From: a virus
Lineage: Duplodnaviria; Heunggongvirae; Uroviricota; Caudoviricetes
Length of the DNA stretch: 9,993 nucleotides
Reading direction: 5' to 3' (one strand)
Virus record (IMG/VR): IMGVR_UViG_2563366799_000005
In this document: positions 1 to 7,373 of the stretch, one piece after another
Layout of the letters: every line of letters starts with the position of its first letter
How positions within the stretch are numbered: position 1 is the stretch's first letter
Notes under the pieces: model-generated
Database searches by the model: none
What the model saw: the letters and a program-made list of their open reading frames with translations, nothing else
What the model was told of the DNA's origin: nothing
Made by a program: the position numbers and the translations under genes

Positions 1-1053
1 TTACGGGGTAATGCCAACCGCTGCCGCCACTTTGTCGCCACTTGGCAGCGTTGCCAGAGGATTGAAACGGAGCGCCGTTTCCAGATGATCCGGTGCCAGA
101 TGAGCGTAACGCATAGTCATTTTTATATCGTGATGTCCGAGGATTTTTTGCAAAGCAAGGATATTTCCACCCGACATCATGAAATGCGCCGCAAACGTAT
201 GGCGCAGAACGTGTGTCAGTTGACCGCGAGGGAGCACGATTGACGTTTTTTCCATCACGGATAAAAATTGAAAATAGCAGTCTGTGAAGAAATTGAACCC
301 ATCAAGCGCCATGATCTCTTCATAAAGCTCTTTACTGATAGGGATGCTTCTGTTTTTCTTCCCCTTCGTTCTTACAAAGGTAATTCGGTATTTAGTCACC
401 TGTGATCGGGTAAGGTTTATTGCTTCTCGCCAGCGTGCGCCTGTGCTTAAGCATATCTTGACTACCAGTGCCAGAATTGGGTCCTGACGTTTGCAATCAG
501 CCAGCAGTTCAACAATCTGCTCATGGGTAAGCCATGCCATCTCTTTTTCTGCGATGGTGAATTTTCGCATGTTCTCCAGTGGGTTTGGATACGACCATTC
601 GCCCAGGCGGGATAGTTCGCTAAAAACACTACTTAGATAGCTTTGCTCCAGGTTAATGGTGACCGGGCTTGCTCCTTTCTTCCATTTCTCGCTGAAGTAG
701 ATCTCACCTGTCAGGCGTTTATCTCGATAGTGGGCAAACATTTTAGAGGTGAGATCGGTTGCAAGGGGATTGCCCAGAGCGTCAACCATCAACAGCAATT
801 TATCATAGACATGCTGCCCAGCGGTTAGAGATTTACCATGTAGTTTGAACCATAGCTCAACCACGTCTTTCAGTGTTCGACGATCCACTGATTCTCCCAG
901 CCAGGGCTTTGCTTCGGTTTCTTCCATCGTATGGCGCTCAAAAGCCAGAGCTTCGCCTTTGGTGGCGAATTGTTTACGCACACGACGCCCACTACGTCCG
1001 GCGGGGTAACATTCGCAAAGCCATTTTCCTGTGGTGAGTTTTCGTACTGCCAT
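1..1053 (-). CDS. int: Tyrosine integrase, P2/186 family (350 aa from ATG at 1053; stop at 1-3)
   Basis: N-terminus MAVRKLTTGKW...GRRVRKQFATKGEALAFE resembles P2 Int. Catalytic signature present: TGARWREA, HVLRHTFA, GHHDIKMTMRYAHL (R...H-x-x-R...Y). GGAGGG RBS 8 nt upstream of ATG 1053. The longer ORF to 1131 has no better start. Confidence 0.9.
   Translation of the reverse strand: MAVRKLTTGKWLCECYPAGRSGRRVRKQFATKGEALAFERHTMEETEAKPWLGESVDRRTLKDVVELWFKLHGKSLTAGQHVYDKLLLMVDALGNPLATDLTSKMFAHYRDKRLTGEIYFSEKWKKGASPVTINLEQSYLSSVFSELSRLGEWSYPNPLENMRKFTIAEKEMAWLTHEQIVELLADCKRQDPILALVVKICLSTGARWREAINLTRSQVTKYRITFVRTKGKKNRSIPISKELYEEIMALDGFNFFTDCYFQFLSVMEKTSIVLPRGQLTHVLRHTFAAHFMMSGGNILALQKILGHHDIKMTMRYAHLAPDHLETALRFNPLATLPSGDKVAAAVGITP
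19..40. repeat. Candidate attL core (left copy of the 22-bp direct repeat), inside the 3' end of int
   Basis: cgctgccgccactttgtcgcca at 19-40 matches 7139-7160 at 21/22 positions (single mismatch at position 30 vs 7150). Identity is lost immediately outside on both sides. Confidence 0.6.
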
Positions 1054-1239: not shown

Positions 1240-1431
1240 TTATCGCGAGTTTTTAGTACAGATTTTTTTTGATTTACTAATAGTTCCATCATTGCAAACG
1301 AACTTTCCATCGGAGGTACAGTGAGAGACACCTCCCTTTTTCCCAGAACAAGGATAATTTTTAGCATAGGTAGTTAGTGGGTTTAATAACAAAGAGCATG
1401 ATAAAACCACAAAAAATACCTTACCAAGCAT
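1240..1431 (-). CDS. Hypothetical small secreted cysteine-rich, lysine-rich peptide (63 aa precursor); moron between cI and int
   Basis: Strong SD (GGGAGG) 5 nt upstream of the ATG and only 4 nt after the cI stop. N-terminus looks like a Sec signal peptide (MLGK + [12 protein letters not shown] + NPLTTYA, likely cleavage after TYA). Predicted mature part about 39 aa with 4 Cys, 8 Lys, net charge about +7. Locally very AT-rich. No family recognised. Confidence 0.5.
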
Positions 1432-1446: not shown

Positions 1447-2016
1447 TTACCTAACGTACTTAATTGTTAAACTTATAATTTTCCCAATTATTTCAACATC
1501 TTCTATCTTGCACTCGAAGGCTCTGTTTCCACCTTCAACGAAGATTCTTCCACCGGGTAAACGAGTAATGTCGCGGATTGTTATTTCGCCATCAATACTT
1601 ATTACCCATTTACCGTCACGTATATCATCAAATTCTTTATCACAAATAAATTCAGAATTGTTATCTGTGATGACAAAAGGTTTTTTAAACGTAGAGGGTA
1701 GAAATCCCTTATCAAAAATATAAAAACCGTCTTCACGCAAGGCACCATCAGATAATACATATTTAGCAACTTCCATAGTATTTGTATTACCTGAAGTTTG
1801 CTTTGAACCATGTCCGGTTGTGAGCCAATTAAGCGAGGTGCCCGTTTCAAGGGCGCACTGGATTACCCATTCTGCTGGGAATGAGTCACGCATGTAGCGT
1901 GTGGCGAGTGTACTTTTAGAGATTCCTAAATGATCGCACAACGCCTGTCGAGTTTTGAATCCATAAGCTTCTACCATGCGCTCTATAGCGCCTCGTCCGC
2001 CTTTCTCCAAATTCAT
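1447..2016 (-). CDS. cI: Phage 186 CI-type immunity repressor (189 aa from ATG at 2016; GTG at 2022 is an alternative)
   Basis: N-terminal HTH (TRQALCDHLGISKSTLATRYMRDS) plus a C-terminal domain. Size of about 190 aa matches 186 CI, not the roughly 99-aa P2 C. Divergent from apl/cII across a short switch region. GGAG RBS 6 nt before the ATG. Confidence 0.85.
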   Translation of the reverse strand: MNLEKGGRGAIERMVEAYGFKTRQALCDHLGISKSTLATRYMRDSFPAEWVIQCALETGTSLNWLTTGHGSKQTSGNTNTMEVAKYVLSDGALREDGFYIFDKGFLPSTFKKPFVITDNNSEFICDKEFDDIRDGKWVISIDGEITIRDITRLPGGRIFVEGGNRAFECKIEDVEIIGKIISLTIKYVR

Positions 2017-2022
2017 GGTCAC

Positions 2023-2141
2023 TCCAAGTGAACTTTTATCTTGACGATTTCACTGTACGATCGTATGTTTATGGTGTTCACAAAATACAAACGATCCGTA
2101 TTCGTCCTGATTAATCATCATTAAACGAGGAATGTTGCATC
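2023..2141. promoter_or_regulatory. Lysis/lysogeny switch region between cI and apl, with candidate rightward lytic promoter and palindromic operator
   Basis: Candidate sigma70 promoter on + strand: TTGACG (2041-2046), 17-bp spacer, TATGTT (2064-2069). Perfect 10-bp palindrome TACGATCGTA (2056-2065) overlaps the spacer and -10. Related repeat ACGATCCGTAT at 2091-2101. Inverted hexamers GTGAAC (2028-2033) and GTTCAC (2075-2080). The leftward lysogenic promoter could not be placed confidently. Confidence 0.5.
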
Positions 2142-2363
2142 ATGAGACCTAACATTTCAATCACTCTTACCACGCCTCATGTGACTATTGAACGCTATAG
2201 CGAGCTGACAGGGCTGTCCATCGATACCATCAATGACATGTTGGCTGACGGACGCCTTATCCGTCACCGTCTGCGCAAAGATAAAAAACGTGAAAAAGTG
2301 ATGATCAACATAGCAGCCATGACCGTTGATGCGCTTTCAGAATGCAATCTAAACCTTAATTAG
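2142..2363 (+). CDS. apl: Apl/Cox-like small HTH protein (excisionase / switch regulator), 73 aa
   Basis: First gene of the rightward early operon, directly downstream of the switch. HTH-like segment [26 protein letters not shown]. Assignment rests on position and size as for 186 apl / P2 cox. GAGG RBS upstream. Confidence 0.6.
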
Positions 2364-2395
2364 TTCGATTCTGAAATACATCAGAGGCATTGACC

Positions 2396-2905
2396 ATGTT
2401 TGATTACCAAGTTTCCAAACATCCACATTTTGATGAAGCCTGTCGTGCATTCGCATTGCGCCACAACCTAGTGCAACTGGCAGAACGTGCAGGCATGAAT
2501 GTGCAGATTCTGCGGAACAAGCTGAACCCAGCTCAACCTCATTTATTAACCGCACCAGAAATCTGGTTGCTTACCGATCTGACTGAAGATTCAACGCTGG
2601 TAGATGGCTTTCTGGCACAGATTCACTGCCTGCCATGTGTACCGATTAATGAGGTGGCAAAAGAGAAACTGCCGCATTACGTCATGAGTGCAACTGCAGA
2701 GATAGGGCGTGTCGCGGCAGGTGCGGTTTCTGGCGATGTAAAAACCAGTGCAGGCCGTCGTGATGCGATCAGCAGCATTAACTCTGTTACACGACTGATG
2801 GCGCTGGCTGCTGTTTCATTGCAGGCCCGTTTACAGGCTAATCCTGCGATGGCGAGTGCAGTTGATACCGTGACTGGCCTCGGTGCTTCATTCGGTTTGC
2901 TGTGA
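2396..2905 (+). CDS. cII: Phage 186 CII-type regulatory protein (169 aa from ATG 2396; ORF track starts at TTG 2390)
   Basis: Position immediately after apl. Length of 169 aa equals the size I remember for 186 CII. HTH-like segment [27 protein letters not shown] 8 nt before ATG 2396. Confidence 0.8.
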
Positions 2906-2912
2906 GGTGCTT

Positions 2913-3113
2913 ATGCTGACGAAAGAACCATCATTTGCATCGCTGCTAGTAAAACAAAGTCCGGCAATGCACTACGGTCACGGCTGGATCATGGGTGAGG
3001 ATGGTAAACGCTGGCATCCGTGCCGTTCACAAGATGAATTGCTGGCAGAACTATCTACGAAAAAACGGGGTAACAAATGGCTATTGAAGGCGCTGCGGCG
3101 ACTGTTCCATTAA
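2913..3113 (+). CDS. Hypothetical early protein (66 aa), in the position of 186 fil
   Basis: ATG at 2913 with GAGGTG RBS, starting 8 nt after the cII stop. ORF track gives an upstream GTG at 2883 that would overlap cII. No recognisable motif; the 186 fil analogy is by synteny only. Confidence 0.45.
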   Translation: MLTKEPSFASLLVKQSPAMHYGHGWIMGEDGKRWHPCRSQDELLAELSTKKRGNKWLLKALRRLFH

Positions 3114-3418
3114 GACCCGGTGAACGCCTGAATGGACTTAATCATATTGCGGAGTTAAGGGCGAAAGTTTTTGGTTTGAATATTGAGTCAGAGCTTGAGC
3201 GGTTTATTAAAGATATGCGTGATCCTCGGGATATCAATAATGAACAAAATAAACGGGCACTGGCTGCCATATTCTTTATGGCAAAAATTCCAGCTGAACG
3301 TCATAGCATCAGCATTAATGAGCTGACCACTGACGAAAAGCGGGAGTTGATTAAAGCAATGAATCATTTTCGTGCAGTGGTGAGCTTATTTCCCAGACGG
3401 CTAACCATGCCGAATTAA
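3077..3418 (+). CDS. Hypothetical early protein (113 aa), in the position of 186 dhr
   Basis: ATG at 3077 with GGGG RBS; overlaps the preceding ORF by 37 nt in another frame. No recognisable motif; the dhr analogy is by synteny only. Confidence 0.45.
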   Translation: MAIEGAAATVPLRPGERLNGLNHIAELRAKVFGLNIESELERFIKDMRDPRDINNEQNKRALAAIFFMAKIPAERHSISINELTTDEKRELIKAMNHFRAVVSLFPRRLTMPN

Positions 3419-3485
3419 CCAACTAATGAAATTAATGGCGTAAACCCGCCGGGCATCCCTTTATCTAAATTCAGGAGAATTGCTT

Positions 3486-3719
3486 ATGCGTAATATTGAA
3501 ACCCTCACGACCAAAACCGGACCGGATGATGCAGGTCTTAATCTTTTACTGACAGAGGCTCGTCTGGAAGAACGCCGGGCAAGGGCTGAAGCAATGGCTG
3601 CTCGCCTCGATAGCCTGGCGTGTCATATCACCTCCCGCCAGCTAAACCACGTCGAAGCGGCAGAACTGCTGCGTGTGACTGCTGAAGCAATCCAGAACGA
3701 AGCGCAGGAGATCCACTGA
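3486..3719 (+). CDS. Hypothetical early protein (77 aa), predicted helical; last gene before the rearrangement junction
   Basis: ATG 3486 with AGGAG RBS 9 nt upstream (ORF track starts at TTG 3480). Stop at 3717-3719 lies about 25 bp from where capsid homology begins on the opposite strand, so the 3' end may be junction-derived. Confidence 0.4.
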   Translation: MRNIETLTTKTGPDDAGLNLLLTEARLEERRARAEAMAARLDSLACHITSRQLNHVEAAELLRVTAEAIQNEAQEIH

Positions 3720-3741
3720 TGGCTGATGCAATGGATCTCGT

Positions 3742-4098
3742 ACACAGGTCCAGCTTCGCGTAGGTCAGCACCGTGTCAAAGTTGGTCTGCTCACATTTAT
3801 ATTCCACATCGACCATCAGCGTCGGATCGACAGGCTCACGCTCTTTTGCGGTGGTATCAGTGGTTCCGGCAATGGTGCTGCCAACACCCAGCCCCAGCAA
3901 CTGACCGGACTGCTCAGTCACTGGCGTGACGTTAATCAGCGTCAGGAATGCGGCGGATTGCTGGATCTGGTCTTCCAGCGTCTGCTGCACAGACGGCTCC
4001 ACGGTGAACTTGCTGGACAGTTCTTCAACTGCCACACCGTTCAGACGCGCCAGCTGCTGCAGGTAAGCGTTAAAAGCAAAGCGGGTATTCTTCTTCAT
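3742..4098 (-). pseudogene. 5' fragment of P2-family major capsid protein gene (gpN-like, first about 119 codons), inverted relative to expected orientation
   Basis: Translation MKKNTRFAFNAYL...LNG...KFTVEPSVQQTL...FLTLINVTPV...GSTIAGTTDTT...EYKCEQTNFD...YAKLDL follows the N-terminus of P2 gpN as I recall it (MRQETRFKFNAYL...KFTVEPSVTQTL...GSIASTTDT...YECDQINFD...YKTLDL). Similarity stops near nt 3742; the ORF then runs on as antisense of the upstream gene to 3628. GGAG RBS upstream of ATG 4098. Confidence 0.75.
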
Positions 4099-4199
4099 CG
4101 GGTTTTGTGCTCCATCAGCAATTGGTCAGAGTGTCAGCGGGGGCGTTACCGCCTGTTGCACGCTGGCGGTAGTCCTGGCGGCTGTCTTCATGACTCAGC

Positions 4200-6689
4200 T
4201 TGTCCACCAGTTCGTTAAAGGCGGTTTACTGCTGGGCACGCGCCATGCTCAACGAACGATACCAGGACTATGACGCCACGGCATCCGGTGTGAAGCGAGG
4301 CGAGGAACTGGCAGAAGCCAGCGGTGATTTGTGGCGTGACGCCCGCTGGGCCATCAGCCGGGTACAGGAACTTCAGCAGACCTATAACGGCTTGTTGGGG
4401 GCGGTCCAGAGACAACGTCAGGCACTTAAAGAATCAGGGATTGATACCAGACAACTCAGTAGTGCCCAGCGAGAACTTAAGAAAAATGCCGAAGAAACTC
4501 GTCAGGCACTGGAGGGCCAGCAAAAAGCACTTAAACGTCTGGGTGAACAACAGGCACGGATGAACGCTGCCAGAGAACAATACTCAAGACGGCTTGAAGT
4601 GCGCGATCGCATCGCAGGAGCCGGAGCCACCACCACGGCTGCAGGGCTGGCAATGGGCGCGCCAGTGATGGCGGCGGTAAAAAGCTATACCAGCATGGAA
4701 GATGCCATGAAAGGTGTGGCAAAGCAGGTCAATGGTCTGCGTGACGATAATGGCAACCGCACTGCGCGTTTTTACGAAATGCAGGATGCCATCAAAGCTG
4801 CCAGTGAACAGCTGCCAATGGAAAACGGTGCTGTGGACTTCGCCGCACTGGTTGAAGGTGGTGCGCGCATGAATGTGGCAAACCCTGACGACAGCTGGGA
4901 GGACCAGAAACGTGACCTGCTGGCCTTCGCCAGTACGGCAGCAAAGGCGGCAACAGCCTTTGAGCTGCCAGCGGATGAACTGTCAGAAAGTCTGGGGAAA
5001 ATCGCCCAGCTCTACAAAATACCAACCCGCAATATTGAACAGCTCGGTGATGCGCTGAACTATCTGGATGATAACGCTATGTCGAAAGGGGCAGACATCA
5101 TTGATGTCATGCAACGCCTGGGCGGTGTGGCTGATCGTCTGGATTATCGTAAAGCGGCGGCGCTGGGTTCCACCTTCCTGACACTGGGTGCTGCGCCGGA
5201 GGTCGCTGCCAGTGCTGCCAACGCGATGGTGCGTGAATTGTCCATTGCGACCATGCAAAGCAAGAGTTTCTTTGAAGGAATGAATCTGCTGAAACTCAAT
5301 CCTGAAGTGATTGAAAAGCAGATGACGAAGGATGCGATGGGAACTATCCAGCGCGTACTGGAGAAGGTGAATGCACTGCCGCAGGATAAGCGCCTGTCTG
5401 CCATGACCATGTTGTTTGGTAAAGAGTTTGGCGATGATGCGGCGAAACTGGCAAACAACCTGCCGGAACTGCAGCGCCAGCTAAAACTGACAGCGGGCAA
5501 TGATGCGCTCGGTTCGATGCAGAAAGAATCCGACATTAACAAGGACTCACTTTCTGCGCAGTGGTTGCTGGTCAAAACCGGAGCGCAGAACACCTTCAGC
5601 AGCCTGGGCGAAACGCTGCGCCAGCCGCTGATGGATATTCTGTACACGGTGAAAAGCATCACGGGGGCGTTGCGTTGCTGGGTGGAAGCTAACCCTGAAC
5701 TGACGGGCACACTGATGAAAGTAGCAGCGGTTGTGGCTGCTGTTACTGTGGGCCTCGGCACCCTGGCTGTGGTGTTGGCTGCTGTGCTGGGGCCGCTGGC
5801 AGTCATCCGTCTGGGATTCTCTGTGCTGGGTATCAAAACGTTACCTTCCGTTACGGCAGCAGTAACGCGAACCAGCAGCGCGTTGTCCTGGTTGGCTGGC
5901 GCACCACTTGCACTGCTGCGACGCGGGCTTGCTTCATCGGGCAACGCCGCAGGTTTACTTACTGCGCCGTTGTCGTCTTTGCGCCGCACGGCATCACTGA
6001 CGGGAAATGTCCTGAAAACTGTAGCAGGTGCGCCGGTTGCACTTTTGCGGTCTGGATTATCCGGTTTACGTGCTGTTGCTGTGATGTTTATGAATCCTCT
6101 GGCGGTACTGCGCGGTGGACTGGCCTCCGCAGGCACGGTGCTGCGAATACTGGCATCTGGTCCACTGGCGATGCTGCGCGTTGCCCTGTATGCCGTATCT
6201 GGTCTGTTAGGTGCTCTGCTCAGTCCGATAGGTCTTGTGGTTACTGCACTGGCGGGCGTGGCGCTGGTTGTCTGGAAATACTGGCAACCCATCACCGCAT
6301 TTCTTGGTGGCGTGGTGGAAGGATTCAAAGCGGCGGCAGGTCCCGTCAGTGCAGCATTCGAACCGCTTAAGCCAGTGTTCCAGTGGATTGGCGACAAAGT
6401 ACAGGCGCTGTGGGGCTGGTTTACTGATCTGCTGACGCCCGTTAAGTCGACCTCTGCCGAACTGCAGAGCGCAGCGGCAATGGGGCGACGATTCGGGGAG
6501 GCACTGGCGGAAGGGCTGAATATGGTCATGCATCCGCTGGACTCCCTGAAATCCGGCGTTTCCTGGTTGCTGGAGAAACTCGGCATTGTCAGTAAAGAGG
6601 CTGCAAAGGCGAAACTGCCGGAAAGAGTGACGCGTCAGCAAACCGTCGTCCGTCCACGCAGTTTCTGGGACCGGACAACGACATGCTGA
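4200..6689 (+). CDS. Phage tail tape measure protein (gpT-like); 829 aa from TTG 4200 or 814 aa from ATG 4245; both ends abut junctions
   Basis: Long alpha-helical, Gln/Ala/Leu-rich N-terminal half, hydrophobic Gly/Ala/Leu segment, and six degenerate repeats with 22-aa period (GAPLALLRRGL, TAPLSSLRRTA, GAPVALLRSGL, NPLAVLRGGL, SGPLAMLRVAL; nt about 5784-6186). In-frame stop at 4191-4193 leaves no room for more N-terminus and no good SD precedes either start. The last about 30 codons overlap the D-fragment frame. Confidence 0.85.
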   Translation: MSTSSLKAVYCWARAMLNERYQDYDATASGVKRGEELAEASGDLWRDARWAISRVQELQQTYNGLLGAVQRQRQALKESGIDTRQLSSAQRELKKNAEETRQALEGQQKALKRLGEQQARMNAAREQYSRRLEVRDRIAGAGATTTAAGLAMGAPVMAAVKSYTSMEDAMKGVAKQVNGLRDDNGNRTARFYEMQDAIKAASEQLPMENGAVDFAALVEGGARMNVANPDDSWEDQKRDLLAFASTAAKAATAFELPADELSESLGKIAQLYKIPTRNIEQLGDALNYLDDNAMSKGADIIDVMQRLGGVADRLDYRKAAALGSTFLTLGAAPEVAASAANAMVRELSIATMQSKSFFEGMNLLKLNPEVIEKQMTKDAMGTIQRVLEKVNALPQDKRLSAMTMLFGKEFGDDAAKLANNLPELQRQLKLTAGNDALGSMQKESDINKDSLSAQWLLVKTGAQNTFSSLGETLRQPLMDILYTVKSITGALRCWVEANPELTGTLMKVAAVVAAVTVGLGTLAVVLAAVLGPLAVIRLGFSVLGIKTLPSVTAAVTRTSSALSWLAGAPLALLRRGLASSGNAAGLLTAPLSSLRRTASLTGNVLKTVAGAPVALLRSGLSGLRAVAVMFMNPLAVLRGGLASAGTVLRILASGPLAMLRVALYAVSGLLGALLSPIGLVVTALAGVALVVWKYWQPITAFLGGVVEGFKAAAGPVSAAFEPLKPVFQWIGDKVQALWGWFTDLLTPVKSTSAELQSAAAMGRRFGEALAEGLNMVMHPLDSLKSGVSWLLEKLGIVSKEAAKAKLPERVTRQQTVVRPRSFWDRTTTC

Positions 6690-6829
6690 CGCTTTCCGGT
6701 GTTCTTATGCCGGAGATAGATGATGCGGAATGGACCATTACGACTCTGACACATACCGTCAGCTCGGATAACGGTTTTACGACCAGTCTGGAGCTTGAAG
6801 TGAGGATTGATGATTTCGAAATGGAATGA
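6596..6829 (+). pseudogene. Probable 3' remnant of tail gene D (or the U/D block), fused out of frame to the tape-measure 3' end
   Basis: Short ORF ending MLTLSGVLMPEIDDAEWTITTLTHTVSSDNGFTTSLELEVRIDDFEME, located exactly where D ends in P2/186 (immediately upstream of ogr). The assignment is mainly positional; I cannot recall the D C-terminus reliably. Confidence 0.4.
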
Positions 6830-6919
6830 TTCTTCGCAATGGAGAACTTTTAAGTTTGCAAAATGGAATAATGCGGTATCATTATTGTGAATTTAGCAAA
6901 AATGGGGAGAACTCGAAAA

Positions 6920-7138
6920 ATGATGATTTGCCCACTGTGTGGAAGTGCCGCCCATACTCGCAGCAGTTTTCAGGTATCTTCATTGACCAAAGAGCGTTAC
7001 AACCAGTGCCAGAATATTAACTGCAGCCATACTTTTGTAACCCATGAAACTTTTGTTCGTTCGATTGCAACGCCAAAAGAGTCAAATCCGGTTCAGCCGC
7101 ATCCAATGAAATCAGGACAGGTGGCGCTCTCTCTTTGA
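6920..7138 (+). CDS. ogr: Ogr/Delta-family zinc-finger late transcription activator (72 aa)
   Basis: MMICPLCGSAAHTRSS...KERYNQCQNINCSHTF...VQPHP follows P2 Ogr as I recall it (MFHCPLCQHAAHARTS...KERYHQCQNVNCSATF...VRPHP), with the CxxC...CxxxxC zinc motif. Length of 72 aa equals P2 Ogr. GGGGAGA RBS about 9 nt before ATG 6920. Stop is immediately followed by the right repeat copy. Confidence 0.9.
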   Translation: MMICPLCGSAAHTRSSFQVSSLTKERYNQCQNINCSHTFVTHETFVRSIATPKESNPVQPHPMKSGQVALSL

Positions 7139-7160
7139 CGCTGCCGCCATTTTGTCGCCA
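7139..7160. repeat. Candidate attR core (right copy of the 22-bp direct repeat)
   Basis: cgctgccgccattttgtcgcca, 21/22 identical to 19-40, starting at the first base after the ogr stop codon. Confidence 0.6.
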
Positions 7161-7218
7161 TCGTTAAAAAACAGTGCTTCTAACGTCATGATTTTAAACG
7201 GCATAAATTTCAGGCAAC

Positions 7219-7261
7219 AAAAAACCCATCAACCTTGAACCGAAATGGCGGGGTTGATGGG
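7219..7261 (-). terminator. Rho-independent terminator-like hairpin downstream of ybjL
   Basis: On the minus strand: 10-bp stem CCCATCAACC / GGTTGATGGG (7225-7234 with 7252-7261), 17-nt loop, followed by TTTTTT (complement of 7219-7224). No U-tract on the + strand side. Confidence 0.5.
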
Positions 7262-7373
7262 CTCCACAAAATGGGGACATCAAAGAAAAGCAGTGGCACT
7301 AATTAAGACTGATGCCCTGCGGAAAAGTTCTGCGGTTGTGCAAAAAAATTTCATTTTCAGGGCAACTTCAGTT

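Follow-up and report, generated by a model that had tools for sequence, protein, structure and literature searches.

Can a late activator gene still act when almost every late gene that it would serve has disappeared from the prophage around it? The question is raised by a locus in the 9,993-bp stretch of DNA analyzed here (the window), which is E. coli chromosome, matching strain G3/10 (NZ_CP060075) at 99.97 to 100% over its whole length. A decayed P2/186-like prophage spans position 1 to approximately 7215, and a sequence-only reading of the window had placed an Ogr-type gene within it, at 6920-7138. We consider it likely that this gene encodes an intact late activator of the Ogr/Delta/B family, located at the right edge of a degraded Kapieceevirus-like prophage, with action only in trans and with passive survival. 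The evidence is given below together with the alternatives that bear on each part.

The window ogr gene is intact and keeps the zinc-ligand cysteines

The ogr-type open reading frame lies on the plus strand (ATG at 6920, TGA at 7136-7138), encodes 72 amino acids and corresponds to RefSeq CDS WP_000972391.1 of E. coli G3/10, at 11797-12015 of the G3/10 locus (L001, whose numbering is used below), the two proteins being identical. In a profile search the protein matched Pfam PF04606 (Ogr_Delta) over residues 4-49 with a score of 78 bits (E=5e-22), the threshold being 26.3, and it matched PHROG 603, a transcription regulation family, with E=1.5e-28; the position and type assigned from the sequence were therefore exact. 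The copy had also been described as full length and equipped with a ribosome-binding site, in agreement with the uninterrupted 72-residue frame and the GGGGAG preceding it.

The alignment to P2 Ogr, 186 B, and P4 Delta that had been proposed as a check was run with PSP3 Pag included. All four zinc-ligand cysteines (C4, C7, C30, and C35) aligned and are invariant across these proteins, both halves of P4 Delta among them; their spacing in the window protein is the canonical CX2C-X22-CX4C, and the other family-invariant residues in the same alignment are present as well. The CX2CX22CX4C zinc motif and the TGT-N12-ACA late-promoter consensus are hallmarks of this regulatory system (PMC3931495). 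Identity of the window protein was highest with 186 B and PSP3 Pag (54% each), followed by P2 Ogr (51%) and the two P4 Delta halves (38% and 29%). Against NCBIfam NF007241, the P2 Ogr/OgrK equivalog model with a cut-off of 116 bits, the window protein scored 98.5 bits and P2 Ogr 177.6, so the former is a family member and not an OgrK equivalog. A search for homologues of solved structure returned none for the window protein, the best PDB E-value being 0.41.

Comparison of 11 ogr copies revealed nine polymorphic sites, eight of them synonymous third positions and one a conservative M63I replacement in the C-terminal tail. With 47 synonymous and 169 non-synonymous sites, the neutral chance that at least eight of nine changes are synonymous is about 4e-5, as calculated by hand from the binomial distribution; because this constraint was measured over a lineage that includes live phages, it is no evidence of selection inside remnants. 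It might be argued that the open reading frame is a dead relic, intact by chance and with an inactive product, as is the general expectation for genes of decaying prophages, which holds nothing specific to this one. The protein is, however, identical to that in full-length phage records, and the four cysteines and other family-invariant residues have been kept, which makes a dead relic very improbable in our judgment. Given this identity and the conserved motif, the window ogr very likely encodes an active protein.

A decayed prophage inserted in rybB has the gene at its right edge

The layout of the remnant is given in Table 1, where the genes from apl/cox-like to DUF2732 (2142-3719) are what is left of the early operon. 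That ogr sits at the prophage edge is confirmed by the order D'-ogr-attR, followed by rybB. This small gene, for a single-domain protein, directly follows D beside the attachment site, as it does in the order D-ogr-attP-int of KP12, 186, and P2.

Table 1. Features of the prophage remnant, its attachment site and the adjoining rybB gene, with positions in the window
Feature	Position	Strand	Remarks
int	1-1053	-	Left edge of the remnant; attL just outside the window
YdcA-like small ORF	1240-1431	-	Between int and cI; NCBIfam PRK10040.1-2, 116 bits; PHROG 6000
cI	1447-2016	-	Intact 186-type repressor gene; possible ogr regulator
apl/cox-like	2142-2363	+	
cII	2396-2905	+	
fil	2913-3113	+	
DUF5347 gene	3077-3418	+	
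DUF2732 gene	3486-3719	+	
N'	3745-4098	-	Capsid gene fragment
O'	4115-4222	-	Scaffold gene fragment
L'	4245-4322	+	Head-completion gene fragment
T'	4329-6641	+	Tape-measure gene without 3' end and without promoter
D'	6715-6829	+	Last 115 bp of D; 79-bp U piece fused at left
Sigma-70-like promoter	6855-6882	+	TTTGCA-16-TATCAT
Ribosome-binding site	6904-6909	+	GGGGAG, 10 nt before ATG; read from sequence
ogr	6920-7138	+	Ogr-type gene
P arm of attR	7139-7215	+	Two CGCCAT repeats (7145-7150, 7156-7161) resembling 186 Int arm-type sites
att core	7216-7229		AACAAAAAACCCAT; 14 bp, identical at attL and attR
rybB	7216-7294	-	sRNA gene, integration target, convergent with ogr; Rfam RF00110, 105 bits

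Host DNA on the right carries ybjL, ybjM, and grxA, and rcdA lies just to the left of the window. Compared to G3/10, the window lacks L001 9642-10224 and 10304-11591 (583 bp and 1288 bp), and these two additional deletions, at 6640-6641 and 6715-6718, leave a 79-bp island of gene U between them; their junctions show microhomologies of 2 bp (AA) and 4 bp (GATA), respectively. N' and O' are opposite in strand to T, D, and ogr, whereas in intact relatives all of these genes are on the same strand, which indicates that an inversion accompanied the deletions.

The YdcA-like frame looks like a gene for a small secreted protein carried as moron cargo, to judge from its profile matches. Relatives of the element carry variable cargo between int and cI and between A and Q (the latter exemplified by positions 1891-6485 of locus L016), including KAP P-loop NTPase, GmrSD, DUF4041, SNIPE-associated, and HEPN proteins, a protein with an HsdR N-terminal domain and a chromosome-segregation ATPase. 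By their gene content, these two positions in the relatives look like hot spots for defence genes.

Downstream of ogr, the window is nearly identical to the attP of KP12 as far as the core, beyond which it runs into rybB and KP12 into its P' arm and int. G3/10 has the 14-bp core at attL as well, and the empty site of K-12 contains it once. Judged from these sequence matches, attR is authentic. The core consists of the final bases of the rybB terminator stem and of the U-tail, so that rybB, a sigma-E sRNA gene with the prophage sitting in its 3' end, is intact at attR. P2-type prophages at rybB have been described in strains W, B, and Crooks with the E. coli W genome (PMC3032704). No intrinsic terminator was found after ogr by pattern scan, and the predicted fold of 7100-7215 was not better than that of shuffled sequences (z = -1.07); with no terminator between ogr and the convergent rybB, ogr transcripts would run antisense through rybB.

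All late-promoter regions have been deleted from the remnant

The statement that almost every late gene has been lost held up: only N', O', L', the 3'-truncated T, a 79-bp piece of U, and the terminal 115 bp of D are left of them. Scanning the whole window for the TGT-N12-ACA dyad gave three matches versus 2.8 expected, i.e., chance level, one inside T' and two in host DNA around ybjL and ybjM; as the earlier reading had reported, none is located upstream of any late-gene fragment.

The same scan is informative in Klebsiella phage ST512-KPC3phi13.2 (L007), the closest full-length relative, where four of the six TGT-N12-ACA matches fall at late-promoter positions. Two lie in or at the edge of the divergent region between P and O, one of these two overlapping the annotated start codon of P, and the others precede V by 48 bp and FI by 70 bp. 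Of this phage, the window retains the early region, a piece spanning the end of O and the start of N, a piece of L, and D'-ogr, and none of the four late-promoter regions lies in these parts. Since all late-promoter regions have been deleted, the window ogr is without a target in cis, and the description of the gene as orphan but intact is correct.

Expression signals and possible control by the resident repressor

The putative ogr promoter shares its -10 hexamer TATCAT with promoter pB of phage 186 and ends 38 nt before the ATG, compared to 32 nt in 186; ogr is preceded, in the manner of the 186 type, by a sigma-70-like promoter with the -10 sequence and position of pB. The predicted transcription start near 6889 excludes the upstream GTG (6887) as a start codon. 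By analogy with the cryptic ogr genes of K-12 and B, the most likely mode of expression would be weak constitutive transcription from the gene's own promoter.

Among the copies compared, the region upstream of ogr hardly varies apart from the polymorphic -35 hexamer (6855-6860), for which the window and several E. coli remnants have TTTGCA, the Klebsiella phages TTTTCA, and E. coli B TTCTCA. We also observed that the motif AATGG(A/G) occurs five times between D' and the ogr ribosome-binding site (6727, 6820, 6838, 6862, and 6902).

The gene might instead be intact yet silenced by the resident CI, as pB is by 186 CI, and so inert during normal growth. A lysogen of an intact phage must keep its activator off, and for this reason the window ogr may be silent. 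Consistent with such control, the 186 record NC_001317 annotates two CI sites over pB, the window promoter has the pB-like TATCAT and spacing, and the cI gene of the remnant is intact, its product being 32% identical to 186 CI. Several short sequences point the same way, namely a single GTGAAT half-site (6887-6892) just past the ogr -10, the 9-mer GAACTTTTA just upstream of the -35 at both pR (2030-2038) and the ogr promoter (6843-6851), a 7-mer (TTCACAA/TTGTGAA) near both promoters, and two 8-mers shared by pR and the ogr promoter versus 0.48 expected. However, the 186-type palindrome ATTCAC-N5-GTGAAT is absent at the ogr promoter, and the best two operator candidates have no counterpart there: GGTCAC-N5-GTGAAC near pR and TCTGA-N6-TCAGA at the apl/cII junction were searched across the window, with no match near ogr. 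Furthermore, the sequence upstream of ogr is almost the same in KP12, although the pR region of that phage is unrelated and its CI shares no more than 51% identity overall; because the N-terminal DNA-binding domain of KP12 CI is approximately 80% identical to that of the window CI (counted by hand from the alignment), this constancy is not decisive for CI control. Weighing these points, we regard silencing by CI as possible, though rather doubtful. The downstream early region, where an antirepressor gene would be expected, has been lost, so a silenced ogr would be switched on only by an incoming phage able to inactivate the resident CI.

Operator scans covered palindromes of the form 6-N4/5/6-6 and compared k-mers among the window pR, the KP12 pR, and the ogr upstream region. 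The putative pR carries an imperfect 18-nt inverted repeat (2059-2096) across its -10 and start region. At the ogr promoter, the palindrome, candidate-site, and k-mer scans gave weak hints, none of which could be called a CI operator. Co-variation of the ogr promoter with immunity type was unsupported too, KP12 combining a different CI with the same promoter.

Orphan and semi-orphan copies of the allele are common in E. coli

To place the window copy among its relatives, we use counts from 5426 complete E. coli genomes, in 4227 of which the rybB site is empty, leaving about 1200 in which it is occupied. The D'-ogr-attR junction is present in 1119 genomes, the window ogr allele in 1143 (21%), and P2-type ogrK in 2067. 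Genomes with the window allele have a median of four separate matching places, and most copies are part of large prophages that are probably complete. Of 60 evenly sampled records with a match to U-D-ogr, 41 had the segment whole, while 11 (about 18%) combined a truncated D with a whole ogr, so that orphan or semi-orphan copies are themselves common.

The identical protein is found in Klebsiella phages ST512-KPC3phi13.2, KP12, and others as well as in E. coli B, G3/10, ZYB62, A134_1EC, E3, and LR-27; in E. coli B it is encoded by a defective element at the same rybB site. Both the gene with its family and its location within the prophage were already established, as were functional orphan ogr genes in cryptic P2-like prophages. 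Because the D'-ogr remnant with ogrK of K-12 was already known, the window case is not a discovery, and it has little import as such; more than a thousand E. coli genomes already have this very protein annotated.

Deletions in independent remnants end at the same nucleotides

What bears on how prophages decay is the recurrence of deletion end points beside ogr. Four junctions keep D from one and the same nucleotide, ...T^AGATGATGCGG, at 6718/6719 in the window and 115 bp before the end of D, each with its own left partner. This partner is U in the window, cII at L001 5871 in the ZYB62 remnant, cII at L001 5727 in the E3 remnant, and the terminase gene P in the widespread WCHEC035123/MS10495 type (junction coordinates: window 6715-6719; L011 3648-3653; L013 3379-3383; L016 9000-9002). 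Three junctions similarly end in cII at ...GTGCGGT^, with D (at two sites) and T as right partners, and a second end point in D (L001 11304) has two left neighbours, as read from the listed features, including those of strain NT1N28. G3/10 retains the whole of D and is two SNPs from the window, which makes the U|D deletion of the window recent and independent.

The shared end points may reflect a mechanical hot spot. Three specific causes were weighed, and none convinces: no insertion sequence is present at any junction, which speaks against IS-mediated deletion; the Chi-like sequence at the cII end point departs from Chi at two positions, with no similar sequence at the D end point; and the mosaic boundary with phage Cartapus, rejected as a cause, lies approximately 60 to 100 bp further right.

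Alternatively, D'-ogr, possibly together with cI, might be kept by selection for a function in the host, for example to sense or mistime P2-like infections or to drive resident P4-like satellites. In line with this idea, at least six deletion forms at the locus keep ogr and its promoter with an identical or near-identical protein, the four junctions with P, U, and two cII sites as left partners stop at one D nucleotide, and the truncated D with whole ogr makes up the 18% of U-D-ogr records in the even sample. Yet most copies of the allele are in large, probably complete prophages, as reflected by the 41 whole segments among the 60; the remnants were found by similarity to ogr-containing queries, by which remnants lacking ogr would be missed; end points exact to the nucleotide suggest a mechanical hot spot over a boundary set by selection; and the constraint on the protein is explicable by life in active phages. 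On balance we find retention by selection decidedly unlikely.

A bolder proposal is that the 115-bp D' and ogr are no passive leftover and that the recurrent end points mark either the border of a protected or protein-bound stretch upstream of ogr or a regulatory unit under selection, with CI and the activator as a domesticated pair. As a further part of this proposal, read-through from ogr could modulate the envelope-stress sRNA RybB, as suggested by the gene arrangement. If true, it would mean that E. coli repeatedly keeps a CI and a late activator to sense or interfere with P2-type phages or to drive satellites; we hold it to be a long shot. Survival of the window ogr is probably passive, owed to its being a small gene at a protected edge and not to selection for a host function.

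Possible action in trans

Judged by analogy with P2 Ogr, 186 B, and P4 Delta, the window protein would bind zinc through its four cysteines, bind late promoters at the TGT-N12-ACA dyad, whose centre lies near -55, and recruit RNA polymerase via the alpha subunit. Its targets would all lie in trans, as late promoters of a P2-like phage, infecting or resident in the same cell, or of a P4-like satellite. Such activation of other P2-like elements is plausible, and a reasonable expectation given that the identical protein is annotated in full-length Klebsiella P2-like phage records, in one of which dyads were located at late-promoter positions. At 51 to 55% identity to P2 Ogr and with a score below the OgrK cut-off, cross-activation of P2-type promoters is an extrapolation. 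Strains with the remnant, including E. coli B derivatives with the identical protein, may supply a late activator to ogr-defective P2-like phages or satellites, and such supply can confound phage genetics.

Comparison with known systems

The closest parallel in situation is the ogrK remnant of K-12, a decayed P2-type prophage that has a 3' fragment of D and then an intact 72-codon ogr at its right edge and in which no late genes remain. The window belongs to this type, with an intact ogr beside a D fragment at attR and all late promoters lost. Slettan et al. in 1992 reportedly found the cryptic ogr genes of K-12 and B to be transcribed and to complement an ogr-deleted P2. The two cases differ in lineage, OgrK being 51 to 55% identical to the window protein, which falls below the equivalog cut-off, and in content, since the window remnant keeps int, cI, apl, and cII whereas the K-12 locus consists of D'-ogr alone between host genes. 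They also differ in attachment site, rybB in the window versus the sRNA gene cyaR in K-12, where the remnant is named 'ogr-D'' (PMC3032704); the cyaR insertion is taken from that paper and is not shown in the genome annotation that we examined.

Phage 186 resembles the window element in its CI, Apl, CII, and Fil types, and its B protein, 54% identical to the window protein, has identical Cys4 spacing and is encoded after D and before attP. In contrast to 186, whose pB carries two CI operator palindromes, no such palindromes are recognisable at the window ogr promoter; 186 has an intrinsic terminator, tB, after B, and P2 has an ogr terminator, whereas the window ogr has none; and 186 integrates in a tRNA-Ile gene instead of rybB. 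P4 Delta belongs to the same zinc-finger family, with the four cysteines aligned in both halves, but it is a satellite-encoded two-domain fusion of 166 amino acids whose halves show the lower identities of 38% and 29%.

Phage Cartapus (L009) is instructive for the history of the module: compared against L001 11630-11700, its gene D is 93 to 100% identical up to about 60 to 100 bp before the stop codon and 57 to 67% identical from there through ogr, a mosaic boundary which indicates that the ogr-att-int module has been exchanged between lineages. The nearest relatives are the Klebsiella phages ST512-KPC3phi13.2 (Kapieceevirus) and KP12, whose Ogr is 100% identical to the window protein, with two synonymous differences in the gene, whose ogr upstream sequence is that of the window save for one -35 base, and whose attP sequence also agrees. 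The KP12 record, which is a partial sequence, differs in its CI and carries a cargo gene between int and cI. ST512-KPC3phi13.2, unlike the window remnant, is a full-length phage with all late operons and dyad-bearing late promoters.
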